Assembly: GCA_945947035.1 (NCBI GenBank)
Contig: CAMEXD010000003.1
Coordinates: forward strand, 19,760 to 83,759
DNA: 64,000 nt
Direction: 5' to 3'
DNA from: an uncultured Mycoplasma sp.
GTDB lineage: Bacteria > Bacillota_I > Bacilli_A > RF39 > UBA660
Part shown: positions 1-55,733 of the stretch, in pieces
Numbering within the stretch: the stretch's first letter is position 1
How the letters are laid out: each line of letters opens with the position of its first letter
The notes under the pieces: generated by a model
The model's input: only the letters and a program-made list of their open reading frames with translations
The model's database searches: none
What the model was told of the DNA's origin: nothing
Translations under genes and position numbers: made by a program

Positions 1-515
1 TACTCTAAAGTTTTTAATATTCTTTTTGGAGATTCATAAAAGATAAAAGTATCAACATCGCTTTTTTTGATGTCATCAATTAATCTTTTTTTATCCCTTG
101 TTTCTCTTGGAAAAAAACCATAAAAGGTAAAGGAATCATTTTTTAGTCCACTTATTGATAAAGCTGTTAAAGATGCACTTATTCCTCCAACTCCTATTAC
201 TTCAATGTTATTTAATCTTGCCTGTTCTACTAAAATATAACCAGGATCAGATACACAAGGAAGTCCAGCATCCGTTATTATTGCTATATTTTTACCATTT
301 TTTAGCATTTCTATTATACTATTTACTTTTTCTTTTTCATTAAACTTATGATAAGCAATAAGTTTATTTTTTATATCATAATGATTAAGCAGTATTAAAC
401 TATGTCTTGTATCTTCACACAAAATGACATCTACACTTTTTAAAGTATCAATTGCCCTTTTGGTAAAATCATCTAAATTTCCAATTGGAGTTGCAACAAC
501 ATATAATATTCCCAT
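1..515 (-). CDS. rsmI: 16S rRNA 2'-O-methyltransferase RsmI, N-terminal ~171 codons (gene continues past window start)
   Basis: Absent from the ORF track because the ORF is open at position 1. My minus-strand translation from the ATG at 515-513 gives MGILYVVATPIGNLDDFTKRAIDTLKSVDVILCEDTRHS...ITDAGLPCVSDPGY, a typical RsmI N-terminus. Confidence 0.85.
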   Translation of the reverse strand, partial: MGILYVVATPIGNLDDFTKRAIDTLKSVDVILCEDTRHSLILLNHYDIKNKLIAYHKFNEKEKVNSIIEMLKNGKNIAIITDAGLPCVSDPGYILVEQARLNNIEVIGVGGISASLTALSISGLKNDSFTFYGFFPRETRDKKRLIDDIKKSDVDTFIFYESPKRILKTLE

Positions 516-523
516 AAAATCAC

Positions 524-3067
524 CTACTCATTTTCCTTTATTTCTTTCTTTAATTCATCTAAAATATTTAAAGCTTCAAGTGGTGTTATTTTTAAGATAT
601 CAACTTCTTTTAATTTTTCTTTTATAACATCATGTTTTTCTTCTGCCATATCAAAATCAAGGCTAGTTTGCTTATAAACTTCTTTCTTATTTTTAGGATT
701 TTCATAAATATCTAAGATTTCAGTTGCTCTATCTATTATTTCTTTTGGAAGACCTACTAAAGAAGCAACATGAATACCATAACTTCTGTCAACTGGGCCC
801 ATTTTTACTTTATGTAAGAATGTTATCGTACCATTTTCTTCTAAGGCAGAAACATGAACATTTTTTAAGTTTCTTAATTCTTGTTCTAAAACAGTTAATT
901 CATGATAATGAGTTGAGAATAAAGTTTTACATTTTACTTTATTGTGAACATATTCTAGAATTGATCTAGCAAGACTCATTCCATCGTATGTTGCAGTTCC
1001 ACGACCTAATTCATCAAATAAAATCAAACTATTTTCTGTTGCATTTGATACTGCATTATTTGCTTCTTTCATCTCAACCATAAATGTTGATTCACCAGAT
1101 ACTAAATCATCACTAGCACCAATTCTTGTAAATATTTTATCAAAAATAGGTATTTTACACTCTTTACAAGGAACAAATGAACCCATCTGAGCCATAATTA
1201 TCGTAAGAGCAAGTGTTCTCATAAAAGTTGATTTACCACTCATATTTGGTCCCGTAATAAGTAGAATATTAGTTTTATTATCCATCATAATATCATTTGG
1301 AACATAAGTAAAATTAGCAACTTTTTCAACTACTGGATGTCTTGCATCTTTTATGTAAATACATCTATCATCAACAATCGTAGGTCTTACATAATTATTT
1401 GATTCTGAAACAACTGCTAAAGATAATAAGACATCAACTTCACTTATAATATTAGAAATATTTTGGATTTTTGGAATATAACCTCTTACAATATCTCTTA
1501 TTTGTATGAATAACTCATACTCAAGTTGAATACTTTTTTCATCACTATTTAAAATTAAATCCTCTTTTTCTTTTAATTTAGGTGTTACATATCTTTCACA
1601 ATTAGAAAGAGTTTGTTTTCTTGTATAGTTATATTCATCTTTTATTAAATCTTTTTGTCCATTAGATATTTCAATATAATAACCAAATACTTTATTAAAT
1701 CCAACTTTTAAGTTTTTTATTCCTGTTCTTTCTCTTTCCTCTTGTTCTAGTTTTAAGATAAAATCTTTACCACCACTTGATAAACTTTTTAATTCATCAA
1801 GTTCTTTGCTATAACCTTTTTTTATTATATTTCCTTCTTTTATAGTAACTGGTGCATCTTCATTTATTGATTTATCAAGTAATTCATATAAATCATCTAA
1901 TACTTCTAAAGTTCTATCATATTCTAATTCTTCAAGTATTCTTTTAATATGAGGAAGTGTACTTAAAGAATTTTTTAATTGAATTAGATCTCTAGCATTT
2001 AAATTACCATAGCTTATTCTTCCTGATAATCTTTCAAGATCATAAACATTATTTAAAAGTTCTCTTAATTCTTCTTTTAAGATAAACTCTGTAAGAAGTT
2101 TAGAAATAAAATCATATCTTCTTTCAATTTGTTTTTTATCTACTAAAGGATTTTCAATCCATCTTTTAAGAAGACGAGAACCCATTGCTGTTTTTGTCTT
2201 ATCTAAAAGCCATAAAAGTGAATAAGTTCTTTCTTTTAGTCTTAATGTTTCAACAAGTTCTAGATTTCTTTTTGAGTGAACGTCTAATTCTAGATATTTG
2301 TTTTTATCTATTATGTTTACTTTTTGAAGATGGGTTAAATTACCTTTTTTAGTATCAGTTAAATAATACAACAAATGTTTTATAGAATTAACTACTCTAA
2401 CATCTGTTATACTATCATATATATAAGAGTATGTATCATCATCAAGTAGTGAAGATGAAATAGTAATTAAAATGCTATAGTTTTCTCTTAATGTATTGAT
2501 TATTTTTCTATCTACTAAATCATTTACAATTAATTCTTTAATGTCTAGTCTTATTATTTCATTTATTAATTTTTCAGTATCATAATTTATTAGTTCTGTA
2601 TTTACTTCTCCCGTTGATATATCAGCATAACTAATAGCATAACAATGAGAAAAGTCATAGATACTTCCTATATAATTGTTGCTTTTTTCATCAAGACTAC
2701 TTGATTCCATTAAAGTACCTTTAGTTACAACTTGAATTACTCCTCTTTCTACCATGCCTTTTTGATTAGGATCAGTTAATTGTTCGCAGATTGCAACTTT
2801 ATATCCTTTTTCTACTAATTTTTCTAAGTATGGCAAATAAGCATGATGAGGAACACCACACATAGGAACACGACTTTCTAAACCACAACTTTTACCAGTT
2901 AGAGTAAGTTCTAGTTCTCTTGATGCAAGTTCTGCATCTTCAAAAAACATTTCATAAAAATCTCCAATTCTAAAAAATAAAATGGCATCTTCATAATTTT
3001 GTTTTATATCAAGATATTGTATCATCATTGGTGATAATTTATTTCTATCTACTTCATTTCTTTTCAT
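524..3067 (-). CDS. mutS: DNA mismatch repair protein MutS
   Basis: 847 aa. N-terminal SPMMIQYLDIKQNYEDAILFFRIGDFYEMFFEDA, Walker A GPNMSGKST and STFMVEM motifs. Confidence 0.97.
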   Translation of the reverse strand: MKRNEVDRNKLSPMMIQYLDIKQNYEDAILFFRIGDFYEMFFEDAELASRELELTLTGKSCGLESRVPMCGVPHHAYLPYLEKLVEKGYKVAICEQLTDPNQKGMVERGVIQVVTKGTLMESSSLDEKSNNYIGSIYDFSHCYAISYADISTGEVNTELINYDTEKLINEIIRLDIKELIVNDLVDRKIINTLRENYSILITISSSLLDDDTYSYIYDSITDVRVVNSIKHLLYYLTDTKKGNLTHLQKVNIIDKNKYLELDVHSKRNLELVETLRLKERTYSLLWLLDKTKTAMGSRLLKRWIENPLVDKKQIERRYDFISKLLTEFILKEELRELLNNVYDLERLSGRISYGNLNARDLIQLKNSLSTLPHIKRILEELEYDRTLEVLDDLYELLDKSINEDAPVTIKEGNIIKKGYSKELDELKSLSSGGKDFILKLEQEERERTGIKNLKVGFNKVFGYYIEISNGQKDLIKDEYNYTRKQTLSNCERYVTPKLKEKEDLILNSDEKSIQLEYELFIQIRDIVRGYIPKIQNISNIISEVDVLLSLAVVSESNNYVRPTIVDDRCIYIKDARHPVVEKVANFTYVPNDIMMDNKTNILLITGPNMSGKSTFMRTLALTIIMAQMGSFVPCKECKIPIFDKIFTRIGASDDLVSGESTFMVEMKEANNAVSNATENSLILFDELGRGTATYDGMSLARSILEYVHNKVKCKTLFSTHYHELTVLEQELRNLKNVHVSALEENGTITFLHKVKMGPVDRSYGIHVASLVGLPKEIIDRATEILDIYENPKNKKEVYKQTSLDFDMAEEKHDVIKEKLKEVDILKITPLEALNILDELKKEIKENE

Positions 3068-3176
3068 ATACTTCTACTTCACTTTCAAAAACGTCTTATT
3101 ATATTCTACCAAATTCTTACATTTTTTTAAAGAGAAAATAACCTTTTTTGAGATTTATTTTATATACAAATTAAAA

Positions 3177-3201
3177 CAAGAAACAATTTAAATGTTTCTT
3201 G
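3177..3201 (-). terminator. Rho-independent terminator downstream of surface-protein gene A
   Basis: CAAGAAACA-N7-TGTTTCTTG hairpin, followed on the minus strand by TTTTAATTT. Confidence 0.6.
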
Positions 3202-3210
3202 AGTTTATAT

Positions 3211-4395
3211 CTAATTTGTATTGCCGCGATAGATTTTTATAAAACCTGCACTGCCAGAACCTGGTGTACCTTTTCCTTGATCACCTTCGCCTGTAAGTTT
3301 TCCATTTTTATGGCCAACCCAGATATATCCTGTTGCACCAGCACCTCCAGTATTACTGCCTCCGCTATAGTCAGTTGTACCTCCAGCACCACCGGTTCCA
3401 GATGCACTCCATCGAGTTCCAGTTGTATCATTCATATAAGTAATTCTATCTACTCCAGCACTACCTGATTTCCCATTTGCATTTATATAGTTTCCACCTG
3501 AATCAATACCACCAGTGCCCCCAGAACCAGAGCTAGAAGCGTAATGGGAAGCATCACTACCAGTATTTGCAGAAGTAACAAGCATTGAAGAATAAGATTC
3601 CACAGAACTATTAATATTTGCAGTTGAAGTAACACCTATTGATCCAAGAGAAAATACAATAGTATCTCCTTTATTTAGCATTACTCTTGAACAGGCACAT
3701 CCTCCACCTCCTCCTCCGCCGCCACCATAGGCGTATAATTTTGTGTCAAGATCCTGATAGTCACCATAACCACCATTACCAGAAGCTCCAAATAATTCTA
3801 TTTGAAAATATCCATCTTCCGGAGCAGTCCATGTTTGTGATGTTGTATATGTGTTTATTAAAATATATTCTGTTGGTTCACTTGGAAAAGTTACAACATT
3901 TATATCACTACTTACATTAGATTCTTTGTTATAATTACCACTTTTATCTTGTATTGTATTAGCTTTTAATTTTATATTACCTGTTGTACTTGTTTCACTT
4001 GAAGTTATAGTAATAATATATTTATAACCATTATCTATTTGTTCTTTTTCTATATTACTTATTGTTATATCTCCTGTTACCGTAAAGTTATCGCTTGTTA
4101 AAGTAGTATCAATTACACCAAAATTATCTGTACAATTCATAGTATAATTTGCATTACTATTTATTCCTATTTCAGAGGCATCTGGTCCATCTATTACACA
4201 TGTTGGTCCTTTTAAATCACTATAAACTATTTTAATATTATTTTCTTGTTCTACTTCATAACTAAATAAAGCATATGAAGTCAGTCCTACACATGATAGT
4301 ATTACAAGTATTATCGTTATTAATAAATATTTATTTATTATTTTTACATCGGTTAAGAGGAAATTCTTTAGTTTTTTAACTTGCCCCCCCCCCAT
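3211..4395 (-). CDS. Family member A: signal-anchored protein with an Ig-like middle domain and a glycine-rich C-terminal domain. The reading frame is disconnected from its RBS-served ATG (4414) by a G10 tract.
   Basis: 394-aa ORF. Hydrophobic anchor LLITIILVILSCVGLTSYALFSYE. C-terminal YFQIELFGASGNGG...GGGGGGGGG...GDTIVFSLG...GFIKIYRGNTN. Paralog of 4563..5723 and of the 5' end of 29977..31437. Confidence 0.8.
   Translation of the reverse strand: MGGGQVKKLKNFLLTDVKIINKYLLITIILVILSCVGLTSYALFSYEVEQENNIKIVYSDLKGPTCVIDGPDASEIGINSNANYTMNCTDNFGVIDTTLTSDNFTVTGDITISNIEKEQIDNGYKYIITITSSETSTTGNIKLKANTIQDKSGNYNKESNVSSDINVVTFPSEPTEYILINTYTTSQTWTAPEDGYFQIELFGASGNGGYGDYQDLDTKLYAYGGGGGGGGGCACSRVMLNKGDTIVFSLGSIGVTSTANINSSVESYSSMLVTSANTGSDASHYASSSGSGGTGGIDSGGNYINANGKSGSAGVDRITYMNDTTGTRWSASGTGGAGGTTDYSGGSNTGGAGATGYIWVGHKNGKLTGEGDQGKGTPGSGSAGFIKIYRGNTN
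4384..4393 (-). repeat. Homopolymeric G10 (C10 on plus strand) tract inside the 5' end of gene A
   Basis: Counted directly: ttg-cccccccccc-atatcg. The upstream frame reads MQTKIRYGGGAS-stop. Confidence 0.95.
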
Positions 4396-4414
4396 ATCGA
4401 ATTTTTGTTTGCAT

Positions 4415-4478
4415 TTTTTTATACCTCCATTTTTTTAACACAAAAAAATGTGTTATTTTCTATGAGATTATCATAACA
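4415..4478 (-). promoter_or_regulatory. Shared 5' cassette of gene A: extended -10 (TGTTATGAT), AACACA-N7-TGTGTT palindrome (4437..4454), GGAGGT RBS
   Basis: Conserved with 5724..5786 and 31438..31501. The promoter call comes from the TGnTAnnAT motif only. Confidence 0.5.
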
Positions 4479-4562
4479 GATTTTTATATTTTTTACTATA
4501 TAAATTTATTTTTTAATAATTATATCAAAAAATAAACCAAAAGAAAGAAAAATATTCTTGTT

Positions 4563-5723
4563 TTAATTTGTATTACCACGATATATCTTTATAAAACCAG
4601 ATTTTCCTGAATCTCCTGCATATTTTTCTATATTTGCCGATGAAGTTCCGTCTTTATTATAAACATCTCCACCTTTTCCTCCAACATTTCCACCAGTATA
4701 TCCTGGAGAACCTCCTGATCCTCCTACTGCTCTCGTTGTCCCTGACCATACTATATTTCGTTGTCCAATTAATCCTTTTTCTCCATTAATATTTTGATAA
4801 TTTCCTCCAGAAGCAACTCCACCTTCACCACAAGTATCCATGTGAGCTGTACTTGTGATATCTCCAGCATCTGTTCCACTTGTTGTTTGCATATTTGCAT
4901 ATGTTTCTTTTGAACTTTTAATTACTACCGAAGAAGTAGCACCAACGCCACCAATTGTAAATGTTATTTTATCCCCTTTATTTAACTTCACACGAGAATT
5001 AGCATAAGCTCCACCACCTCCACCATTTCCTCCATTAAAATAATAATGAAAAGGACTGGAAGAAGTATAAGTATGACCCTTGCCTCCGTTTCCACTTGAA
5101 CCGAATAATTCTATTTGAAAATATCCATTTTCTGGAGCAATAAATGTACCAGAACTTGTATACGTATCCATAAACACATATTCTGTTGGTTCTGGTGGAA
5201 AAGTTACAACATTTATATCACTACTTACATTAGATTCTTTGTTATAATTACCACTTTTATCTTGTATTGTATTAGCTTTTAATTTTATATTACCTGTTGT
5301 ACTTGTTTCACTTGAAGTTATAGTAATAATATATTTATAACCATTATCTATTTGTTCTTTTTCTATATTACTTATTGTTATATCTCCTGTTACCGTAAAG
5401 TTATCGCTTGTTAAAGTAGTATCAATTACACCAAAATTATCTGTACAATTCATAGTATAATTTGCATTACTATTTATTCCTATTTCTGATACATCAGGTC
5501 CATCTATTACACATACTGGTCCTTTTAAATCACTATAAACTATTTTTATACTATTTTCTTGTTCTACTTCATAACTAAATAAGGCATATGAAGTTAGTCC
5601 TACAAATGATAGTATTACAAGTATTATCGTTATTAATAAATATTTATTTATTATTTTCACATCGGTTAAGAGGAATCTTCTTAGTTTTTTAGCATACCCA
5701 CCATAGTTAATTTTTGTTTGCAT
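4563..5723 (-). CDS. Family member B: signal-anchored protein with Ig-like and glycine-rich domains, no homopolymer tract
   Basis: 386 aa, MQTKINYGGYAKKLRRFLLTDVKIINKYLLITIILVILSFVGLTSYALFSYE. The first ~185 aa are nearly identical to A. The Gly-rich domain is divergent, and the end GFIKIYRGNTN is the same. Confidence 0.85.
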   Translation of the reverse strand: MQTKINYGGYAKKLRRFLLTDVKIINKYLLITIILVILSFVGLTSYALFSYEVEQENSIKIVYSDLKGPVCVIDGPDVSEIGINSNANYTMNCTDNFGVIDTTLTSDNFTVTGDITISNIEKEQIDNGYKYIITITSSETSTTGNIKLKANTIQDKSGNYNKESNVSSDINVVTFPPEPTEYVFMDTYTSSGTFIAPENGYFQIELFGSSGNGGKGHTYTSSSPFHYYFNGGNGGGGGAYANSRVKLNKGDKITFTIGGVGATSSVVIKSSKETYANMQTTSGTDAGDITSTAHMDTCGEGGVASGGNYQNINGEKGLIGQRNIVWSGTTRAVGGSGGSPGYTGGNVGGKGGDVYNKDGTSSANIEKYAGDSGKSGFIKIYRGNTN

Positions 5724-5786
5724 ATTTTTTGCCTCCGTTTTTTTAACACAGAAAATGTGTTATATTCTTATGAATTAATTCTAACA
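5724..5786 (-). promoter_or_regulatory. Shared 5' cassette of gene B: TGTTAGAAT extended -10, AACACA-N5-TGTGTT palindrome (5745..5761), GGAGGC RBS
   Basis: Alignment with the A and C upstream regions. Confidence 0.5.
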
Positions 5787-7090: not shown

Positions 7091-8044
7091 ATGAAAAAAA
7101 TATTTATTAAATTTACAACTTTTTTATTTATCATATTTTTAATCTATAGTATTTTTACTAAAACAAAAGTTGTTACAAGCTCTATAGAATTTAGTATGAA
7201 CTTATTTTTAAAAAATATTTTTCCTTCACTATTTCCTATGTTTATTTTAACATCTGTTTTAACAGCAATTGGTTTACCTGATTTTCTAGGTAATATTTTT
7301 AATAAACTATGGCATATTTTATTTAAAACTAAAGGTATATCTTCTTTTGTATTTTTTTCATCTATGTTAAGTGGTTTTCCAAGTAGTGGTAGATTAATAA
7401 ATGATCTATTAGATAAAAAATTAATCAATGAGACTGATGCTTCTAAAATGCTTAATTTTACTTTTTTTGCTAATCCTTTATTTGTTATTAATACAGTTGG
7501 TGTTATGTTTTTAAATAATAGAAAAATTGGTATGTTAATTTTATTATCTCATATTTTAGGTAATATTATCGTTGGTATTTTATTTAGAAATTTATATCAA
7601 GATAATGAAAAAATAGAAACTATTAGTTTTAAAAAATCACTTAAACTTTTCAATCAAAAAATAAATAATACCAATATAATAAAAGAGTTTTTAGGAAGTA
7701 TTTCAAAAACTATTATTACTCTTTTAAATGTCTTTGGTATTATTACTTGTTTTATTATTTTAATAAATTTAATTAATATTGATATAAATCCTTTATTTAA
7801 CTCATTATTTAAAGGCATAATAGAGCAAACAACAGGGCTTAAATATCTATCTATGACAAACATCTCTTATGATATAAAAGTATTTCTTTCAACATTTTTA
7901 ATATCATTTGGTGGTTTAAGTATTCACGCTCAAATCTTTAATATTTTAAATAATTATAAAATTAAATATTATCCTTTTTTACTATCAAGAATAATTCATG
8001 CAGGAATCAGTACTTTTATAATTTATATTATTTTAAGCCTATAG
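7091..8044 (+). CDS. ylbJ: Sporulation integral membrane protein YlbJ (nucleoside-recognition domain family)
   Basis: Multi-TM protein with an FPSLFPMFILTSVL motif. Adjacent to the ylbL-like gene, as in Bacillus. Start at MKKIFIKF after AGAGGA. Confidence 0.75.
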   Translation: MKKIFIKFTTFLFIIFLIYSIFTKTKVVTSSIEFSMNLFLKNIFPSLFPMFILTSVLTAIGLPDFLGNIFNKLWHILFKTKGISSFVFFSSMLSGFPSSGRLINDLLDKKLINETDASKMLNFTFFANPLFVINTVGVMFLNNRKIGMLILLSHILGNIIVGILFRNLYQDNEKIETISFKKSLKLFNQKINNTNIIKEFLGSISKTIITLLNVFGIITCFIILINLINIDINPLFNSLFKGIIEQTTGLKYLSMTNISYDIKVFLSTFLISFGGLSIHAQIFNILNNYKIKYYPFLLSRIIHAGISTFIIYIILSL

Positions 8045-8516
8045 GATGAATAATATTTATTCCATAATTTACATCTTTATCAATTTCATGATAAGGAATA
8101 TTTATAATTAAAAACTTGTTATCATCACTTAGTTTTATAGTTATAATGCCATTAATTTCTAAGTATTCTCTTTTTGGGATAGGATATACTTTATTGTTGT
8201 AAGTTATAACAAAAGTACTATAATCGATACTAAATGTTGATTCACTATTATCTGCAAACTTAAATACTGCAGATATAGTTGTATTTGAAGTATCAGTATT
8301 TTTTAATTCTTTAAATTCTCTTTTTATTAAGTCATCACTTATTACTTTAGTTAGTGTAGTTTTATATTCTAAAAGTTCTTTTTCCATAGTAGTTGTAGTA
8401 TTAGAATTTTTTAAGTTAATTATTACATCCATCATACCAAATACTAATATCATAAGCATTACAAAAACTACAATAAATTCAACAACAGATACACCTTTAT
8501 TATTTAATTTTTTCAT
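8028..8516 (-). CDS. Prepilin-type N-terminal cleavage/methylation domain protein (pseudopilin-like)
   Basis: MKKLNNKG|VSVVEFIVVFVMLMIL: a G-x4-E class III signal followed by a hydrophobic helix. Confidence 0.7.
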   Translation of the reverse strand: MKKLNNKGVSVVEFIVVFVMLMILVFGMMDVIINLKNSNTTTTMEKELLEYKTTLTKVISDDLIKREFKELKNTDTSNTTISAVFKFADNSESTFSIDYSTFVITYNNKVYPIPKREYLEINGIITIKLSDDNKFLIINIPYHEIDKDVNYGINIIHPIGLK

Positions 8517-8527
8517 TATTTACCTCC

Positions 8528-9307
8528 TTAACATGGTGATATTGAAAAATTTTCTTTATCATTTTCTGAGATATATTTACGTCTTGTTCTATATAAATTC
8601 ATTTCATTATTGCAACTATCTGTACATGGATAAGTAACTATATAATAATTATCTCCTTCTTGATAACATAATGGATTAGTATCACAATCGGTTGGCTTTG
8701 CTGTTCCATTATTATATAAATTGACTTTTTTATATGATTTTTCACAAACATTACTATCTCCAGTACAAGATTCTACTTGCCAAGAACTCCAATCACTATA
8801 AGTTACAGTTTGACATATTTTGGAATAAAATTGATCACTTGAATAACCCGTTTTTGTTTTAACTGTTAATCTTAAAAGTTCGCCAGTTTCATTATCTTTT
8901 ATATCAAGATAATTTATATATTTACTTAATGGACCTGTATAATTAGTAGGTTTATATTTAGTTATTACAGCATCTGTTATATCATATTGATCTGCAAGTA
9001 ATTGACAAGAAAAATTGCCATAACTATAATTTACAGAACATAATCCATCTTCTACTATTGTTAAGTAATTATCAGAGTTAAGTGTTAAATTAATTCTACT
9101 ACCACCATTATAGAAGTATCTTAATAACATAACTTTTAAATAATAATTAGCGTATAAACTTTCAACATCGTTATACTCTATTCTTTTTTCATACTCTCCT
9201 TTTGTTGGTACAAAATTTGTAAATAAAACTGTAAAGATAACTAAAACAACAACTGCTACTGCTAAAAGTTCAGCCATCATAAATCCCCTATTATTAAATT
9301 TTTTCAA
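8528..9307 (-). CDS. Prepilin-type N-terminal domain protein with a Cys-rich C-terminal domain
   Basis: MKKFNNRG|FMMAELLAVAVVVLVIF. The C-terminal ~100 aa contain about 10 Cys. Confidence 0.7.
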   Translation of the reverse strand: MKKFNNRGFMMAELLAVAVVVLVIFTVLFTNFVPTKGEYEKRIEYNDVESLYANYYLKVMLLRYFYNGGSRINLTLNSDNYLTIVEDGLCSVNYSYGNFSCQLLADQYDITDAVITKYKPTNYTGPLSKYINYLDIKDNETGELLRLTVKTKTGYSSDQFYSKICQTVTYSDWSSWQVESCTGDSNVCEKSYKKVNLYNNGTAKPTDCDTNPLCYQEGDNYYIVTYPCTDSCNNEMNLYRTRRKYISENDKENFSISPC

Positions 9308-9413
9308 AAATAAACACCCTCTATCTACTTGATTATATTACATTTTTATTATATAATAAAAAATAGATAAATACTAGAATAATTTTAAAAAAAATAAAAA
9401 GGGGCAATTATTT

Positions 9414-11147
9414 ATGAGAGAATTTGATTTTGCAACAGTTCCAATTGTTGACATAGTAAATGATATCATTATTGATGGTGCAACTAAAAATGCCAGTGAT
9501 ATCCATTTTGATCCTGCTGAAAAATATTTAAAAATTAGAATGCGTATTGATGGTGAATTAAGAGATTATGCTATTGTTGAAAATAAATATAAAAGAAATT
9601 TAACTACTAGAGTTAAGCTTTTAGCAGGTATGAATATTACTGAATCTAGACTTCCTCAAGATGGTGCGATAAAAAGTAATATTAATGGCAAAGATTTGGA
9701 TTTGCGTGTTGCTGCTCTTCCTACTAGCTTTGGTGAAAAAATTGTTATTCGTATTTTAGATTATACTATGAGTTTTGAAGGTATTGAAGCTCTTGGATTT
9801 ACTAAAGAAAACTATGAAATAATAAAAGAAATGCTTGCTAATCCTAATGGTATTATTCTAGTAACAGGTGCAACTGGTAGTGGTAAATCAACTACAGTTT
9901 ATTCTATGCTTCAAAGACTTAACAATGAAGGTACTAATATTATAACAGTTGAAGACCCAGTTGAAATGAATATCGAAGGTATTAATCAAGTTCAAGTAAA
10001 TTCTGAAATTGGTCTTGATTTTGCAACTGTTTTAAGATCAATTTTAAGAGAGGACCCTAATGTTATATTAATCGGAGAAATAAGAGATAGCGAAACTGCT
10101 AAAATAGCAATTAGAGCATCTATTACAGGACATCTTGTTTTATCTACAATCCATACTAATAACTCTCTTACAACTATTGAAAGACTTTTGGATATGGATG
10201 TTGAAAGATATTTGCTTTCTACTTCTTTAAAAGGAATAATATCTCAAACTCTTGCTAAAAGATTATGTCCAAATTGTAAAAAGAAACGTGCTACTACTGT
10301 TGCTGAAAAACGTATTTTTAAAAAAGCCTTAGATAAGGATATCGATTATATCTATGAACCTAGTAATGGTTGTCCAAATTGTCGTGGTGGTTATAAAGGA
10401 AGAATTGCTCTTCAAGAAGTTTTGTTAATTAACGATGAAATAAGAGATGCAATTAATGAAAATAAAAGACGTGCTGAACTTCGTAGTATGATTTATAAAA
10501 AAGGCGTTAAAACATTATTCCAAGATGGACTTTTAAAAGTAATTGATGGTATTACTACTATGGAAGAAGTATTTAGATTAGTTGATGTAGATGATGATCT
10601 AGATAATATCTATGGTAAAGATGAATCTATGGAAAACGATGTGAAGGAAATTATTGAAAAACAATTAAAGGAAAAGGGCATAGAAAAAGAAAATAATGAT
10701 AATATAACAAATAATTTAATAGAAAATACTTTAGATAATAACAAAATTGTAAAAATTAATGAACCAAAAGAGAATAATTATGATATTAAATTAGATAATT
10801 TTGATAATTTCTTTGATAATATTGAAAATAAAACAATAAATAATGTTAATAAACAACCTATTTATGAAGAAAAAAAACAAACAGATAATTCTATAAATGA
10901 TTTCATAAATAATATTGATAAAGTTGAAAATGGAAATATTAATAATGATAATTTCGATAAATTCTTTATTGATACCAATAATAATAATTTAAATGAATCA
11001 AATAAAACAAATTATCAAAACAATAATAATTTAAATAATCCAGTTGTTGAAAATAATCAAAATGAAAAAGAAGAACAAAAAGAAAGCACTTCATCTAGTT
11101 ATACTGATGATTTAATCAATTTAATTAATCAAGGATTTTTCGAATAA
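9414..11147 (+). CDS. GspE/PilB/ComGA-family secretion ATPase with a ~190-aa Asn/Asp/Lys-rich C-terminal extension
   Basis: Walker A GATGSGKST, an Asp box, a His box, and tetra-Cys CPNC...CPNC. The tail contains DNFDNFF / DNFDKFF / INDFINN repeats. Confidence 0.9.
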   Translation: MREFDFATVPIVDIVNDIIIDGATKNASDIHFDPAEKYLKIRMRIDGELRDYAIVENKYKRNLTTRVKLLAGMNITESRLPQDGAIKSNINGKDLDLRVAALPTSFGEKIVIRILDYTMSFEGIEALGFTKENYEIIKEMLANPNGIILVTGATGSGKSTTVYSMLQRLNNEGTNIITVEDPVEMNIEGINQVQVNSEIGLDFATVLRSILREDPNVILIGEIRDSETAKIAIRASITGHLVLSTIHTNNSLTTIERLLDMDVERYLLSTSLKGIISQTLAKRLCPNCKKKRATTVAEKRIFKKALDKDIDYIYEPSNGCPNCRGGYKGRIALQEVLLINDEIRDAINENKRRAELRSMIYKKGVKTLFQDGLLKVIDGITTMEEVFRLVDVDDDLDNIYGKDESMENDVKEIIEKQLKEKGIEKENNDNITNNLIENTLDNNKIVKINEPKENNYDIKLDNFDNFFDNIENKTINNVNKQPIYEEKKQTDNSINDFINNIDKVENGNINNDNFDKFFIDTNNNNLNESNKTNYQNNNNLNNPVVENNQNEKEEQKESTSSSYTDDLINLINQGFFE

Positions 11148-29976: not shown

Positions 29977-31437
29977 TTAGTTAATTGTGACTGAAAGACG
30001 AGAACCATAATTCGTAGCGCTGTTGCCATTGCTGCTGCTGAAGTAGAAAACACCCGCACCGCCAGCATTACCACAGTAGCCTCCACGAAGGAACCACGGA
30101 AAGTTAGAAGTAACGAAGGACGCGGAATCGCCATACCATTTTTTCGTCTCCGTTAACGCATGTTGTAATCCTGCATTTGTATAATCACTTTGTGTTGTAT
30201 ATACATTATAATATTTTGTATTTGGTAATGTTGTAAATTGAGAACCACCTGCTGTATTATTGTAATTACCCATTACGTATTCATATGCTCCACCACTCAT
30301 GTCATATACACCATAGATATTTCCTGTTGTTGAGGCATCCATTCCTAAACTTGTATTATATGCTCCATTTGTTACAGTAGATGCACTTCCAGCAGGTGCT
30401 CCATATCCTGTTATATAACTTGAATTATTATTTATTCCTACTTCACTGCAACTTGTTGATGAACTACATCTACCATAGATACTTTGTGTTAGGTATGCTA
30501 CTGCACCCCATTCATTATTTTTTAACATATGGGTATCTAGGGTTGTATCAATTGTTTTATCAAATCCATATTGGTTTCCACTATCAGCCATTTTTTGAAT
30601 ATCACCAAAGAATGTTGATACACTTGCTCCTCTCCAAATTGTTGCATTTGGTAATACTTTTGGTCTTATTGATGTTAGATTGCATCCTGCTCCTACGTCA
30701 GAACTACTTGCTGGTTCACATGATACATTACTTGAATTTTCAAATTTTCCTATCCAAAATCCTGATACTGTTCCTCCAAAATCAAATGCATCATTGGCTG
30801 TTGTATCTTTATTTACAAATGTTATATTAAATGCTCCTGGTGCAGCTTGTGTTCCCCCATTATAATTTGCAGTATCTCCAGTTGCACTAAATCTTGGTAT
30901 CCATACTAACATTGTGTTTATTACTTCCATTGGTATTATTGTGCCTACTTCTGAATTTACATAATCTTCTCTTGTACATGTACCATCACATGATTTTATC
31001 GTTCCATCATTTAAAGTTATTTCTGTTGTTGTATTACTATCACTTACTGTTACTGCATTAGCCCATACTTTATCACTATAGCTATACCATTTATATCCTT
31101 TTTTAGTATTATTTACATCTGCTTTTCGCCATACTTCTCTTTCACTATCATAACATACTGGTATCATATTAGTTGGTAATGAATTTTTAGGATTATTGGC
31201 ATTACTTGTATCTTGGCTAATTGTATCACAATAATATGGTGGATTATATACTATTCTTATACTACCACTTGACTCTGTTTCATAACTAAATAATGCATAT
31301 GAAGTTAGTCCTACACATGATAGTATGACAAGTATTATCGTTATTAATAAATATTTATTAATTGCTTTTACATCGGTTAAGAGGAAGTTCTTTAATTTTT
31401 TAACTTGCCCCCCCCCATATCGAATTTTGGTTTGCAT
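29977..31437 (-). CDS. Family member C: same leader/signal as A and B, fused to a different (FGE-sulfatase/C-type-lectin-fold-like) extracellular domain. The G9 tract is in frame.
   Basis: MQTKIRYGGGQVKKLKNFLLTDVKAINKYLLITIILVILSCVGLTSYALFSYE, then unrelated sequence with GFWIGKFE, NNEWGAVAYL, GVYDMSGGAYEYVMGNY and FLRGGY...GSRLSV. The track's MEVEK extension overlaps the RBS GGAGGT. Confidence 0.8.
   Translation of the reverse strand: MQTKIRYGGGQVKKLKNFLLTDVKAINKYLLITIILVILSCVGLTSYALFSYETESSGSIRIVYNPPYYCDTISQDTSNANNPKNSLPTNMIPVCYDSEREVWRKADVNNTKKGYKWYSYSDKVWANAVTVSDSNTTTEITLNDGTIKSCDGTCTREDYVNSEVGTIIPMEVINTMLVWIPRFSATGDTANYNGGTQAAPGAFNITFVNKDTTANDAFDFGGTVSGFWIGKFENSSNVSCEPASSSDVGAGCNLTSIRPKVLPNATIWRGASVSTFFGDIQKMADSGNQYGFDKTIDTTLDTHMLKNNEWGAVAYLTQSIYGRCSSSTSCSEVGINNNSSYITGYGAPAGSASTVTNGAYNTSLGMDASTTGNIYGVYDMSGGAYEYVMGNYNNTAGGSQFTTLPNTKYYNVYTTQSDYTNAGLQHALTETKKWYGDSASFVTSNFPWFLRGGYCGNAGGAGVFYFSSSNGNSATNYGSRLSVTIN
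31408..31416 (-). repeat. Homopolymeric G9 (C9 on plus strand) tract in the 5' end of gene C
   Basis: Counted directly: cttg-ccccccccc-atatcg. Confidence 0.95.
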
Positions 31438-31501
31438 TTTTTCTACCTCCATTTTTTTAACACAAAAAAATGTGTTATATTCTTATGAATTAATTCTAAC
31501 A
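31438..31501 (-). promoter_or_regulatory. Shared 5' cassette of gene C: TGTTAGAAT extended -10 (31493..31501), AACACA-N6-TGTGTT palindrome (31459..31476), GGAGGT RBS
   Basis: About 90% identical to the A and B upstream leaders. Similarity stops at about 31500. Confidence 0.5.
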
Positions 31502-31559
31502 CATTTTTATTATTTGTGTCTATCATTTATCTTTAATTTTGGTGATTTTAAGTTTATTT

Positions 31560-32900
31560 TTAAATTTCATTTACTAATTTTTTAAATTCATCGCCACGTT
31601 CTTCACATCTATTATATTGATCCCATGAAGCACTCGCAGGACTAAGTAAGACTACATCATTTTTTTTCATTATTTCTTTTATTTTAGGAAAACTTTCTTT
31701 TAATGTTTCAAAAATATAAGTATCAATTTTATTATTTTTTCCAAATTCTTCTACTCTTTTTCTAGTTTCACCAATACCTATTATAGCTTTAACATTTTTC
31801 ATAAATGGTTTTAGTTCTTCAAAATCTTGACCTCTTTCATATCCACCAAGTATTATAATTGTAGGTTCGTTAAATGCATTTAAAGCAATCTGAGTACATT
31901 TTATATTAGTTGCTTCTGTATCATTGTAAAACAAAACACCATCTTTTTCTCTTACAAATTCTAATCTATGTTCAACTCCATTAAAGTTTTCTAAAACATC
32001 TATTATACTTTTTGTACTACAATCAAAACATTTTACTGCAGTAATTGCTGCCATTATATTTTCATAATTATGTATTCCTCTAAGTTTTACATCTTTAACA
32101 TCAATTATTTTTTCATCTTCATAAAATATAGCATCATTTTCTAAATAACAATTAGCTTTTTCTTTACTAGAAAACCATTTTTTTATTGATTTTGCATTTT
32201 CACTAAATTTAACTATTTCAGGATCATTTAAATTTAAAATACAAATATCATTATTTTGTTGATTAATTAATATTTTGCTTTTTAAATACTTATAGTAATC
32301 ATAGGTTTTAAAAAACTCTAAATGAGCTTCACTTATATTAGTGATAACTGCAACATCAGGATTAAATTTATGTAAATTTTCTAATTGTTGACTTGATACT
32401 TCCATGACAATAATATCATTTTCTTTTAGCTTTTCTAAAATACTGCATAAAGGATATCCGATATTACCTGCTAAAAGAACAGGTTTTTGATTTTTTTTTA
32501 GCATTTGATAAATTAAGGTTGTTGTTGTTGTTTTACCATTTGTTCCAGTTATTCCAATAATTTTAATATTCTTATCTTTAGGAATAAGTGAATATGCAAG
32601 TTCAACTTCATTAATAACATCAATATTAAGTTCTTTTGCTTTTAAAACATATTTATGATCAATTGGAACACCTGGATTTTTTATAAGATGAGAAAAACTA
32701 TTATCTAATAAATCATCTGGATGACTTCCTAAAACAAACTCTACTCCTAAAGCTTTTAATTCATCATATTTTTCATTATCAATTTTATCAATTGTTTTAC
32801 TATCATTTATTATTACTTCGCAATTTCTTTTTATTAAAACTTTAGCAGCCTCATAACCACTTTTTGCAAATCCTAAAATTAATACTTTTTTATAATCCAT
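31560..32900 (-). CDS. murD: UDP-N-acetylmuramoyl-L-alanine--D-glutamate ligase
   Basis: ILGFAKSGYEAAKVL and GITGTNGKTTTTTL; Mur ligase domains. Confidence 0.93.
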   Translation of the reverse strand: MDYKKVLILGFAKSGYEAAKVLIKRNCEVIINDSKTIDKIDNEKYDELKALGVEFVLGSHPDDLLDNSFSHLIKNPGVPIDHKYVLKAKELNIDVINEVELAYSLIPKDKNIKIIGITGTNGKTTTTTLIYQMLKKNQKPVLLAGNIGYPLCSILEKLKENDIIVMEVSSQQLENLHKFNPDVAVITNISEAHLEFFKTYDYYKYLKSKILINQQNNDICILNLNDPEIVKFSENAKSIKKWFSSKEKANCYLENDAIFYEDEKIIDVKDVKLRGIHNYENIMAAITAVKCFDCSTKSIIDVLENFNGVEHRLEFVREKDGVLFYNDTEATNIKCTQIALNAFNEPTIIILGGYERGQDFEELKPFMKNVKAIIGIGETRKRVEEFGKNNKIDTYIFETLKESFPKIKEIMKKNDVVLLSPASASWDQYNRCEERGDEFKKLVNEI

Positions 32901-32939
32901 AAAAATCCCTCTTTCAAAATTATTTTATCACGTTATTTA

Positions 32940-33650
32940 TCAAGTATCAATATTAGCCTTTCTTGCTTGATTTAACTGATACTTTCTTTCAACATTATAA
33001 ATCTTACCATTTTTTTTGAAGTTTGCTCCAGTTTGCTTAAAATGAAACTTAACATTATATTTTATGCAACAAGATCTAATATTTAAAACCCAATTATAAT
33101 CACAAATTCTAGCATTTGGTCCACTTTCTCCTCCCACAGTTACTTTTTCTATTGTAGAATCTAAATATTTTGATAAATCAATAGATGATAAAAGTGGTTC
33201 ACAAATTATTTCTTTGTGTTTTATGTTAAGATTTTTAAAAATTGGAAGTCTATATTCTGCCATTTTTTGATTTTCTGTTGTACAGCATATTATTACATTA
33301 GAAAAATTTATAAAATCATCAGGCAAATTAACATTAAATCTATCAATTCTTTTTGTTATTATATAAAATGTACAATCATTTCTTGTTCTAATAATATCCC
33401 AAGCTTTAATTCTAAATAAATCAGCATCAGGAAGAAAAAAATCAGAGGTTAAACAGGTATAGATAAAAGAACCACTTGGTATTTTGTAATCACCTTTTTT
33501 GTTTTTTCTTATTGGTAAATCAAAATCTTTATTTATAGTAACAACACTACTATCTTTTAAAAAAGATGAATCTCTTCTATAAACATAACAATTTAAACAT
33601 CCTGCACTTATTTTATGACAACCATGCCAAGGATTCCAAATATATTCCAT
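32940..33650 (-). CDS. DUF5131 / phage Gp37-Gp68 family protein
   Basis: N-terminal WNPWHGCHKISAGCLNCY three-Cys signature. Confidence 0.75.
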   Translation of the reverse strand: MEYIWNPWHGCHKISAGCLNCYVYRRDSSFLKDSSVVTINKDFDLPIRKNKKGDYKIPSGSFIYTCLTSDFFLPDADLFRIKAWDIIRTRNDCTFYIITKRIDRFNVNLPDDFINFSNVIICCTTENQKMAEYRLPIFKNLNIKHKEIICEPLLSSIDLSKYLDSTIEKVTVGGESGPNARICDYNWVLNIRSCCIKYNVKFHFKQTGANFKKNGKIYNVERKYQLNQARKANIDT

Positions 33651-33662
33651 ATTTTACCTCTT

Positions 33663-34346
33663 TTATAATTTATTTATTACTATTTCTATATTTTTACTAT
33701 TATCATTTGCTTTATTTAATGAATAATTTTCATATAATTTATAATTTAATTTATTTTTTTCTAGAATTTGTTTTATTTTTTCTATTTCATAAATAATAAA
33801 TTCATGTGTATCGTTATATTCATTATTATCTATTATATATTTAATGTCTGTGTGTTCCTTAAATTGTTTTTCATCAAAAGTCCATTTCATAATTCTTTTA
33901 TAATCCTTAAATGAAATAGTCTTTTCACCATCGCATCTACCATTATGTAAATCAATGATAAGAATACCATTATCATTAAGATTTTTATACCATTTTATTA
34001 TTCCCTTTTCAAACTCTTCATAATTATTTAAATGATTGAAAACTGCAAACATAGATATAATAACACCATATTTTTTATCTATTTCATAGTTAAGCAAATC
34101 ACCTTGAAAAAGTTTTCCTTTAGTTCTAGTTTTTGCTATATCAAGCATATTATCACTTAAATCTAAACCATCAACTTGATAACCTCTTTCTTCAAGTAAG
34201 TGCATATGAATTCCAGTTCCACATCCAACATCTATTATTGTTTTTCTATCTTTAATTAAATTGATTAAAAAATCTATTTCTTGTTCATAAGACTTATTAC
34301 TATAGAATAAATCATAATATTTTGCCATATCTTTATATTCATACAT
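33663..34346 (-). CDS. Class I SAM-dependent methyltransferase
   Basis: YYDLFY...IIDVGCGTGIHMHLL...GLDLSDNML. Resembles small-molecule (TylM1-like) methyltransferases. Confidence 0.8.
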   Translation of the reverse strand: MYEYKDMAKYYDLFYSNKSYEQEIDFLINLIKDRKTIIDVGCGTGIHMHLLEERGYQVDGLDLSDNMLDIAKTRTKGKLFQGDLLNYEIDKKYGVIISMFAVFNHLNNYEEFEKGIIKWYKNLNDNGILIIDLHNGRCDGEKTISFKDYKRIMKWTFDEKQFKEHTDIKYIIDNNEYNDTHEFIIYEIEKIKQILEKNKLNYKLYENYSLNKANDNSKNIEIVINKL

Positions 34347-34642
34347 ATTATCTTTTCTCCTTATATATATTTATTAATTATTTTATATCTATGTATTTTT
34401 TTTTATAATAAAAAATATCTTTCCCCAAAAATAAACAATACCATGCTAGTATCTATTACAAAACCTTAGTTAAATCTTTATCAAGTGCATCTTCTTCAAA
34501 TATATTCTTTAAATGTAAGCTTATATTATAAGAACTACAATCAAACACTTTTTACATACTCTTTTATGTTAGCTATATCATTTTATCTTTTAAGATAATA
34601 TCAACATCAATTATATCTTCATTTGCTTTCATTCATAAATTT

Positions 34643-35848
34643 TTATTTTTCAAGGTTTTTTCGATATAATAATGAAACACATTCAACATCATTTGTTCTT
34701 GGAAACATATTAAATGGTGTTATTTCAATAATTTTGTACTTATCTTCTAAAGATAATAAATCTTTTTTTAATGTTTTTGGATTACACGATACGTAAATTA
34801 ATTTTTCTGTTTTAATATTCTTTAAATTATCAATAACATCTTTACTTAAACCACTTCTTGGTGGATCAACTATTACACAAGAAAAACTTTTATTTTTTAT
34901 GATTTTAGCGTCACCACAAATAAATTCAATATTTTCTATGTTGTTTATCTTTTTATTTTCATTGGCATTAGAAATTGCTTCTTTTACAACTTCTACTCCT
35001 AAAACATTTTTAAAATTGTCTTTTAAAAACATACCAATTGTACCAGTACCACAATATAAATCAAGCAGTTTATCTCCACTTCCTGCATATTCTTTTATTT
35101 TTTCGTATAATTTTTCCATACATAATGTATTTACTTGAAAAAATGAATTATTACCAATTATATATTCTAAATTATCTATTTTTTCTTTGATGTTTTTATT
35201 ATATTTTATAAGTTTATCATTTAAATAAATTGATTTTATATTATAATTATTTAATTTTTCTAAATCAGAATTATTAATATCACCATAAAATGAAATAAGA
35301 ATTTCTTTTGTATAAAAAGTTTCTCTTATCATTATTTTAGTTATTTTTTCCAAATCAAATTTTTTTAGCGTATTAATTAAGTTATTCATTGTATCACTTA
35401 TAAGTAAACATTTATCTATTTCTACTAAAGAATTTGTATCATTTAAATAAAAACCAAGTTTTTTGTTTTCTACATGAACTACAACTTTATTTCTATAATT
35501 ATAACAATTTACAGATTCTATTTTATTAACTTTATAGCTATTAAATAAGCTATTTAAATAATCTTGTTTTTTATCAAGTTCCTCTTTTTCTTCTAAATGC
35601 AAATAATTGCAACCACCACAATCATAAAAATAAGGACATTTTATTTTTTTTCTTTTTGGACTTGAATTTTCTACTGAAACAAGTTTTCCAATTGCAAAAT
35701 GTTTTTCTTTTTTTATTATTTTTATCTTACCTTTTTCATTTAAAAATGCCCCTTTAATAAAAATAACAAAATTATCTATTTTAGCTATTCCATTACCATA
35801 ATTATCTTCATCTATTATTAGGCAATCTAAATAATCATTCATGTTCAT
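34643..35848 (-). CDS. 23S rRNA (uracil-C5)-methyltransferase, RlmD/RumA family
   Basis: TRAM-like N-terminus, Fe-S Cys cluster CPYFYDCGGCNYLH, LDLYCGTGTIG, and C-terminal VSCNP. Start at MNMNDY after GGAGGA. Confidence 0.85.
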   Translation of the reverse strand: MNMNDYLDCLIIDEDNYGNGIAKIDNFVIFIKGAFLNEKGKIKIIKKEKHFAIGKLVSVENSSPKRKKIKCPYFYDCGGCNYLHLEEKEELDKKQDYLNSLFNSYKVNKIESVNCYNYRNKVVVHVENKKLGFYLNDTNSLVEIDKCLLISDTMNNLINTLKKFDLEKITKIMIRETFYTKEILISFYGDINNSDLEKLNNYNIKSIYLNDKLIKYNKNIKEKIDNLEYIIGNNSFFQVNTLCMEKLYEKIKEYAGSGDKLLDLYCGTGTIGMFLKDNFKNVLGVEVVKEAISNANENKKINNIENIEFICGDAKIIKNKSFSCVIVDPPRSGLSKDVIDNLKNIKTEKLIYVSCNPKTLKKDLLSLEDKYKIIEITPFNMFPRTNDVECVSLLYRKNLEK

Positions 35849-35919
35849 AAATATTCCTCCGAAAAATAGCAATAATATTATATAACCAAATATCTGTTTA
35901 TTCAAAAAAAGAAGGTCAA

Positions 35920-55555: not shown

Positions 55556-55610
55556 AAGTTACCACCTCATTTAAATGATATCATCTTTTTTCTGTTTTTT
55601 CAAGTCGTTC

Positions 55611-55733
55611 ATCACGTTTTTGATATGACTTTTCACAACAATCATCACATTTTTGACACGACTTTTTGCAACAATTATCACGTTTTTGACACGACTTTTT
55701 AATTTTTTTTCACACATTTTTGATAAATTATTA
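55611..55733. repeat. 33-bp tandem repeat array, right set (3 full copies plus 1 degenerate copy)
   Basis: Units begin at 55611, 55644 and 55677, with a degenerate unit at 55710. Confidence 0.85.

Follow-up and report, generated by a model that had tools for sequence, protein, structure and literature searches.

A Poly-G Tract Early in a Predicted Surface-Protein Gene of an Uncultured AT-Rich Bacillota Bacterium: A Probable Slipped-Strand Contingency Locus

The Gene A Locus

The start region of gene A, which encodes a predicted surface protein, was analyzed in a 64-kb stretch of contig CAMEXD010000003.1 (assembly GCA_945947035.1; hereafter the window, 24.3% G+C). The gene lies on the minus strand and carries a run of ten G residues (G10) shortly behind its start codon. 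The run was compared with the corresponding sites of two paralogs in the window, B and C, and of homologous loci in other genomes, and it probably serves as a slipped-strand switch. The elements of the gene A start region are listed below, with positions counted from the first letter of the window.

4412..4428, minus strand: Shine-Dalgarno sequence (SD) GGAGGT, 8-nt spacer and canonical ATG, kept in A, B and C and in the loci of other metagenome-assembled genomes (MAGs)
4384..4393, minus strand: poly-G tract G10, the proposed slipped-strand switch, at codons 8–10 of gene A
4376..4414, minus strand: dead-end frame MQTKIRYGGGAS followed by a stop, 12 codons, obtained by translation from the canonical start in the G10 state
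4393..4395, minus strand: ATG made of TAT+G, overlapping the first G of the tract and lacking an SD, a possible weak alternative start (sequence reading)
3211..4395, minus strand: intact body of gene A, 394 codons (list of open reading frames, domain searches and model)
4436..4498, minus strand: promoter-like region and putative hairpin of the 5′ untranslated region (5′UTR), conserved across the paralogs, with a presumed function

On the minus strand, GGAGGT (4428–4423) was followed by the 8-nt spacer ATAAAAAA and the ATG (4414–4412), and the leader continued as CAA ACA AAA ATT CGA TAT up to G10 (4393–4384) and CAAGTTAAAAAACTA. The frame from the ATG at 4414 was closed by a stop at 4378–4376. 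The open reading frame (ORF) of 394 codons was open only from the TAT+G ATG at 4395, upstream of which no purine-rich SD was present in the 27 nt that reach back to the real SD. Hence, any expression from this internal ATG in the G10 state would be weak. The SD-served layout, the early stop and the long ORF accessible only from an ATG without SD had all been put forward in an earlier sequence-only reading of the window, and each of them was borne out when the letters were reread.

The length of the tract determined which frame was read. A G9 tract gave the full-length product, as in paralog C, G10 led to the stop after 12 codons, and G8 or G11 led to a stop after 15. The overlapping ATG at 4393..4395 shared the frame of the long ORF only for tract lengths with a remainder of 1 on division by 3, and the G8 and G11 alleles had no start codon of any kind in the ORF frame. 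Gene A in this genome would consequently be OFF or nearly so, with no more than weak expression from the ATG that lacks an SD. The ORF behind the frameshift was undamaged, with 394 open codons both in the window and in a second assembly of the organism described below. About 10% of random codons would be stops in such DNA, and the intact ORF speaks against an old pseudogene.

Paralogs B and C and the Shared 5′ Cassette

The two paralogs of gene A in the window were located as follows.

4563..5723, minus strand: paralog B, with the same 5′ cassette, in tandem with A
29977..31437, minus strand: paralog C, with the same 5′ cassette and leader and a different ectodomain (formylglycine-generating enzyme (FGE)/C-type-lectin-like fold)
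31408..31416, minus strand: G9, the poly-G tract of paralog C, which leaves the gene in frame (ON), at the same codons as the tract of A

About 300 bp were common to A, B and C at 84–88% nucleotide identity. This cassette comprised, in order, a promoter-like element, an inverted repeat, the SD, a leader of seven codons and the tract, behind which came a basic segment and a hydrophobic helix. Paralog C read MQTKIRYGGGQVKKLKNFLL... in frame through its G9, which agrees with the N-terminus that the sequence-only reading had predicted for gene A upon loss of one G. In paralog B, the tract was interrupted (GGTGGGTAT, codons TAT GGT GGG TAT), so that B was in frame and not prone to slippage. The family extends beyond these three genes, as both the rest of the genome and related MAGs contain further members. 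The 64-residue leader alone, used as a protein query, returned two proteins.

The promoter-like element of the cassette consisted of a −35-like TAGACA or TAGTAA, a 17-nt spacer and an extended −10 of the form TGnTAGAAT or TGnTATGAT, which suggests a sigma-A-type promoter. In gene A, the corresponding parts were TAGTAA (4498–4493) and TGTTATGAT (4478–4470). The consensus promoter scan did not list this promoter, and the assignment was made by reading the conserved letters. In all three paralogs (4436–4455, 5749–5767 and 31466–31508), the promoter-like element was followed, ahead of the SD, by the inverted repeat TAACACA-T6-TGTGTTA (4455–4436 in A), which could act as an operator or as a 5′UTR hairpin. 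An additional 12-nt perfect inverted copy flanked the −10 region in paralog C. The Rfam scan of the window returned two tRNAs and no leader RNA family.

An invertible promoter was considered and rejected, as only short or AT-rich imperfect inverted repeats surrounded the promoters and the orientation was the same in both assemblies of the organism. A perfect 19-nt inverted repeat (3164–3182 and 4555–4573, 1,372 nt between the arms) was also noted, which encloses gene A together with its promoter. This pair is probably a by-product of the long palindromic terminator of A together with the homologous 3′ ends of the two tandem genes A and B.

Rarity and Maintenance of the G Runs

The G10 of gene A and the G9 of paralog C were the sole G or C runs longer than 5 in the 64 kb, the next longest being a C run of 5 and a G run of 4. 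In dinucleotide-preserving shuffles of the window, 0.02 G/C runs of at least 9 were expected per shuffle, and none of the 100 shuffles matched the observed count; the composition-based expectation for a C run of at least 10 was 2e-4. The claim that a 10-nt G/C run in DNA this rich in A and T is very unlikely to have arisen by chance was thereby upheld. Moreover, no other G/C run of at least 6 was present among 56 kb of fetched homologous loci besides the tracts themselves.

The coding context was evaluated as well. Across the window's 40 other long ORFs, GGG accounted for 2.8% of the codons for glycine, which corresponds to a probability of approximately 2e-5 for three in succession. A nine-glycine stretch inside gene A was coded by GGTGGCGGCGGAGGAGGAGGTGGAGGA, a mixture of GGT, GGC and GGA codons that contains no long G run. 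The three glycines specified by the tract fall in a non-conserved N-terminal tail that is absent from most family members, and the pure-G run was maintained in lineages whose leader flanks have diverged (the A/C type and the type of loci L008 and L010, described below). The retention of pure G in diverged leaders despite the rarity of GGG argues for selection on the nucleotide run and not on glycine. A requirement for three glycines would be hard to reconcile with the retained pure-G run; these comparisons instead point to selection for a mutable run, with which they fit easily.

Tract Length in a Second Assembly of the Organism

A second assembly of the same organism, GCA_019973115.1, contained a protein 97% identical to that of gene A, which was truncated on record (P0001). 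The alignment of its contig (L001) with positions 1–5452 of the window showed one gap and 14 substitutions. The gap was the tract of gene A, with G11 in GCA_019973115.1 and G10 in the window. A second contig of the assembly, aligned with positions 30990–35900, had three substitutions and no gap, and paralog C was G9 there as well. The tract of A was thus the single indel in 10,364 compared bases (5,453 bp and 4,911 bp). The many A/T runs of 7–9 in the compared regions showed no length differences between the assemblies.

All 14 substitutions of the first alignment were confined to one part of gene A.

3941..4113, minus strand: mosaic patch in the Ig-like domain of A, 173 bp, holding all 14 substitutions against GCA_019973115.1 (L001 1341–1513)

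In the window, a stretch of A of about 290 nt that includes this patch was 100% identical to the tandem paralog B, and the flanks of the stretch differed between A and B. An identical block between differing flanks indicates gene conversion between the paralogs, and the sequence comparison indicates that conversion within the family was recent. A mosaic N-terminus was likewise observed between the database proteins P0006 and P0122.

Tract Length in Related Genomes

Homologous sites in other genomes were examined by alignment, and all sequences compared were metagenome assemblies. With the window and GCA_019973115.1 included, nine tracts with conserved flanks were counted: G8 once, G9 four times, G10 three times (in one case deduced from a protein sequence) and G11 once. 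The G8 was found in the GTDB representative MAG SUG1322 (JAQXMG01; L004), which has the same leader and is out of frame; this MAG also holds a B-type interrupted leader and a distant paralog without a tract. The G9 sites were those of paralog C in both assemblies of the organism and those of two JGI metagenomes (3300031555 and 3300029305; loci L008 and L009). In the latter two, which represent a lineage further removed, the leader has diverged to ATG ACA AAC AAA CAT TCG TGT AAT, which is followed by G9 in frame; their protein matches C at 55% identity in the part that could be aligned, and the upstream DNA differs between the two metagenomes.

Two further G10 sites joined that of gene A. The locus from ENA sample ERZ27302875 (L010) encodes a 72%-identical protein and was annotated from the ATG formed by AAT+G. 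In a third genome, the C-type protein P0129 was called with the N-terminus ...ENICKQKFDMGGGQVKK, which corresponds to 5′UTR and leader in the G10 frame, and its tract was assigned from the read-through N-terminus ...CKQKFDMGGGQVKK of the protein sequence. Look-ups of the exact proteins P0002, P0004, P0113 and P0129 returned no record. The C-type gene was therefore G9 in two genomes and G10 in the third. In a C-like relative at L011 2501–2665 (ENA ERZ28573656), the tract had decayed to G5AG and a TAA closed the frame at codon 54, with C-type sequence continuing beyond it; this is apparently a dead member of the family. The comparison of tract length across assemblies that the sequence-only reading had proposed was positive, with G11 against G10 in gene A and with G8, G9 and G10 elsewhere.

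Each of the three leader types (TAT-G, AAT-G and CAT-ATG) had the bases AT directly before the tract. An ATG consequently always overlaps the first G in the +1 frame (window 4393–4395, L004 2997–2999, L008 632–634, L010 3001–3003 and L011 2518–2520), and G10 alleles are open from a start without SD. The database records of the out-of-frame members (P0001, P0121, P0125, P0129 and P0145) were truncated, called from a wrong ATG or extended into the 5′UTR. Among the products of the window on the 86-kb NCBI/ENA contig, P0121 is gene A from a wrong start, P0002 is B and P0113 is C. Automatic annotation mis-calls such out-of-frame copies, and families of this kind would therefore be under-counted in MAG catalogues, with their N-termini misrepresented.

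Exact-pattern scans of JGI metagenome contigs for the tract with A/C-type flanks and for a 26-nt conserved stretch coding for the anchor returned nothing; L008 and L009 were reached by protein search. The scans of viral contigs gave no match.

Predicted Products

The domains of the gene A product were assigned from sequence searches and a structural model.

About 4279–4341, minus strand: transmembrane segment or signal anchor of A (sequence and model)
About 3889–4206, minus strand: Ig-like domain of A (weak Big_12 match)
About 3214–3888, minus strand: glycine-rich domain of A (weak Gly_rich_2 match)

A and B were alike in having an Ig-like domain (weak Big_12 match) and a glycine-rich domain (weak Gly_rich_2 and weak PHROG tail-fibre matches). 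The AlphaFold model of frame-corrected A had a mean predicted local distance difference test (pLDDT) score of 81, with a helix at residues 25–45. The values in its glycine-rich domain were mostly above 90, and the means of 10-residue blocks ranged from 81 to 98. The sole significant match of the model in the Protein Data Bank (PDB) was the tail tip of mycobacteriophage Bxb1 (9d93_Qa, E 2.5e-5), and the weaker PDB matches were to the ALK glycine-rich domain.

The model of paralog C had a pLDDT of 70 and resembled FGE and C-type-lectin folds, for example, that of TaqVP, the variable protein of a diversity-generating retroelement (DGR; weak, E 3e-3). Its fold was also likened to the DGR variable protein Mtd. 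The possibility that C is a DGR target was considered for this fold and rejected, because the 3′ 524 nt of C occurred only once in the window, which leaves no template repeat there, and the TaqVP match was weak. The ectodomain family of C is very large, with 6,291 matches at E ≤ 0.001 among 8,000 candidates scored, mostly from gut MAGs named 'Bacilli bacterium'.

According to these models, the products of A, B and C are plausible membrane-anchored or secreted binding proteins, and the label of surface protein for A is a reasonable one of predictive character. NCBIfam contained no family for A, B, C or two pilin-like ORFs of the neighbourhood.

Genome Neighbourhood

The locus was chromosomal in context. 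The gene mutS lies directly downstream of A, and a SepM/Lon-like protease gene, ylbJ, pilin-like genes and a PilB-type ATPase gene lie upstream. Paralog C is adjoined by sigE and spoIIGA; the presence of these two genes and of ylbJ indicates that the organism carries sporulation genes.

At 8028–11147, two ORFs with classical prepilin N-termini (G|VSVVE and G|FMMAE) stand beside a divergently oriented gene for a PilB/GspE-type ATPase, and they form a type IV pilus or pseudopilus cluster near the A/B locus. The N-termini of A, B and C (KN-FLLTD...) resemble the prepilin motif vaguely. An intergenic tandem repeat with a 33-nt unit (2.8 copies, 86% match) occupies 55609–55701.

Mechanism and Alternative Explanations

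Taken together, the observations make it probable that gene A is a simple-sequence-repeat (SSR) contingency locus, governed by slipped-strand mispairing, in a paralog family that shares one 5′ cassette. Translation would start at the SD-served ATG at 4414. With a tract length that is a multiple of 3 (G9), the ribosome would continue into the anchor and the ectodomain, and the protein would be displayed on the cell surface, whereas G10 would close the frame after 12 codons and G8 or G11 after 15. Slipped-strand mispairing during replication would add or remove a G at a rate far above that of base substitution, so each tract-bearing paralog of a lineage would alternate between the two states independently of the others. 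In the present genome, A would be OFF or at most weakly expressed, C would be ON and B would be fixed ON. The cassette would be joined to differing extracellular domains of receptor-binding type, and gene conversion between paralogs would contribute further sequence variation. The anatomy of the start region, the consequences of tract length for the frame, the polymorphism of the tract between genomes and the intactness of the ORF were observed directly. A high switching rate, reversibility within populations, surface display and a selective benefit, such as evasion of phages or host immunity, are expected by analogy with known contingency loci.

Several points weigh against the slipped-strand switch. 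The case for heterogeneity and reversibility within populations was drawn from comparison between genomes and from analogy. Five of the nine tracts were out of frame with the SD-served start, and the OFF state of gene A in both assemblies (G10 and G11) is also consistent with drift towards loss. Not every tract varied at the strain level, given that C was G9 in both assemblies, and the decayed tract and codon-54 stop of L011 show that family members die. In addition, Illumina sequencing is prone to errors in long G runs, a warning given by the authors of a study of Bifidobacterium tracts themselves (PMC9187656).

Some of these points would be accounted for if the G run were a neutral hot spot whose instability is put to no use. 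Gene A would then be a superfluous tandem copy of B that a frameshift has silenced and that is turning into a pseudogene. This is consistent with the out-of-frame state of A in both assemblies, with the intact, tract-free paralog B directly beside it and with the decay and premature stop of L011. However, the 394-codon ORF was otherwise undamaged in both assemblies, and diverged lineages retained a pure-G run at this codon in spite of a strong bias in codon usage and towards A and T. Moreover, the same cassette occurs with in-frame G9 alleles, and the C-type gene differed between genomes (G9 in two, G10 in another). A dying gene is therefore considered unlikely. Alternatively, the tract length might act through decoding instead of switching: slippage of RNA polymerase or frameshifting of the ribosome, or with G10 a start at the overlapping ATG, would keep out-of-frame alleles expressed and let the length tune the amount or the N-terminus of the product. 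The G10 state puts the ATG at 4395 into the frame of the entire ORF, and AT precedes the tract in all three leader types. Multi-level expression from alternative starts in different frames is a property of the lic loci of Haemophilus influenzae. Nevertheless, the internal ATG has no SD within 27 nt, and the G8 and G11 alleles have no in-frame start codon. Low-GC Gram-positive bacteria depend strongly on the SD, and transcriptional slippage is best documented on A/T runs, not on G runs. Decoding as the main role of the tract is thus very unlikely.

The remaining alternative was that the true tract is G9 everywhere and that lengths of 8, 10 and 11 are homopolymer miscalls of short-read assemblies. 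Every source was a MAG or metagenome contig, and Illumina reads degrade on G-tracts, so database lengths may depart from the real population (PMC9187656); exact counts of G runs from Illumina deserve caution. Even so, consensus assembly normally reports the majority length, lengths other than G9 were found in five independent assemblies and G9 in four, and the two assemblies of the organism had no other indel over 10.4 kb. Counts off by one would also leave the existence, position and conservation of the tract standing. An artefact of this kind is most improbable.

Between a strict ON/OFF switch and decoding, an intermediate arrangement was considered, in which G10 may be a low-expression state rather than a null through the overlapping ATG. 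In its full form, the 5′ elements from the promoter and hairpin through the SD, leader and G-tract to the signal anchor would make up a portable switch cassette, which recombination would set before different receptor-binding ectodomains in a multigene family of uncultured gut Bacillota that form spores. The cassette would act as a translational switch with three states, namely G9 (full expression), G10 (weak expression, from the overlapping ATG, of a precursor shortened at its N-terminus) and G8 or G11 (none). This elaboration is conceivable but rather doubtful.

Homopolymer contingency loci are textbook matter in a handful of pathogens and have been little explored in uncultured, AT-rich, spore-forming gut Bacillota. 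Here, DNA of 24% G+C has maintained a run of G9–G11 in several genes for predicted surface proteins, where it occupies the same codon, and in more than one species. The finding, for which the support from comparison between genomes is unusually good, suggests stochastic diversification of the surface of these commensals via phage tail-tip-like and lectin-like domains, for which phage or host pressure would be a plausible driver.

Comparison with Known Systems

The closest parallel considered was the sortase-dependent pilus of Bifidobacterium breve UCC2003, whose G-tracts (bbr_0113 and bbr_1889) were found as G11/G12 mixtures in one culture (PMC9187656). In both systems, a Gram-positive gut commensal carries an intragenic poly-G tract (10–12 nt in B. 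breve) early in a gene for a surface structure (a predicted one for gene A), the tract length decides whether the gene is read through from its real start, and strain assemblies differ in length. In B. breve, the tract comes after the export signal and before the remainder of the protein, whereas that of gene A precedes the membrane anchor. Gene A, which ends in ...FIKIYRGNTN, also lacks a sortase, an LPXTG motif and a pilus operon: A, B and C contain no LPXTG, the Pfam and NCBIfam searches gave neither a pilin nor a sortase, and the neighbours are mutS and the SepM/Lon-like protease gene. Hence, gene A is not a member of the Bifidobacterium system. Furthermore, its host is a spore former of 24% G+C and not a high-G+C actinobacterium, and its tract belongs to a cassette common to paralogs with different ectodomains, unlike that of B. 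breve.

The loci of Campylobacter, Neisseria, Helicobacter and Haemophilus share with gene A a G/C run of at least 8 in the 5′ part of the coding sequence of a gene related to the surface, as predicted for gene A (PMC8355987, PMC3786947, PMC6321876), ON/OFF control by frameshift, several independent loci per genome and differences in length between strains. These are Gram-negative pathogens in which switching was measured, whereas the present evidence is a comparison of genomes and the protein family is unrelated. The variable surface lipoproteins of Mycoplasma (e.g., vaa with its poly-A; cited in PMC2831843) resemble the family of gene A in their low G+C content, shared 5′ regions, homopolymer control and recombination between paralogs. 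They differ in being lipoproteins of wall-less bacteria controlled by poly-A or promoter-spacer repeats, and no sequence relationship with gene A was found.

Homopolymer switches in endospore-forming Firmicutes have been published. In Bacillus subtilis, swrA has a poly(A) at nt 20–27 and switches at 1e-4 to 1e-5 (PMC2831843), and in Paenibacillus glucanolyticus, flgG has an A8 near its start that acts as a 5′ homopolymer switch (PMC9941203). Both place the homopolymer in the first ten or so codons, as gene A does, and are turned OFF and ON by a reversible frameshift of ±1. They differ in that their tracts are poly-A, which is unremarkable in AT-rich DNA, and in that they are single motility genes without a paralogous surface family. 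The suggestion of the sequence-only reading that this architecture was undescribed in endospore-forming Firmicutes was therefore overstated, and it stands in the narrower sense that a poly-G switch of a surface-protein family was not found for the lineage. In the literature on Clostridia-like or uncultured low-GC spore formers, no poly-G or SSR switch of a surface protein was found, and only the inversion switches of C. difficile were encountered. The kind of device is thus well known, and the gene family and the lineage in which it probably occurs are new.

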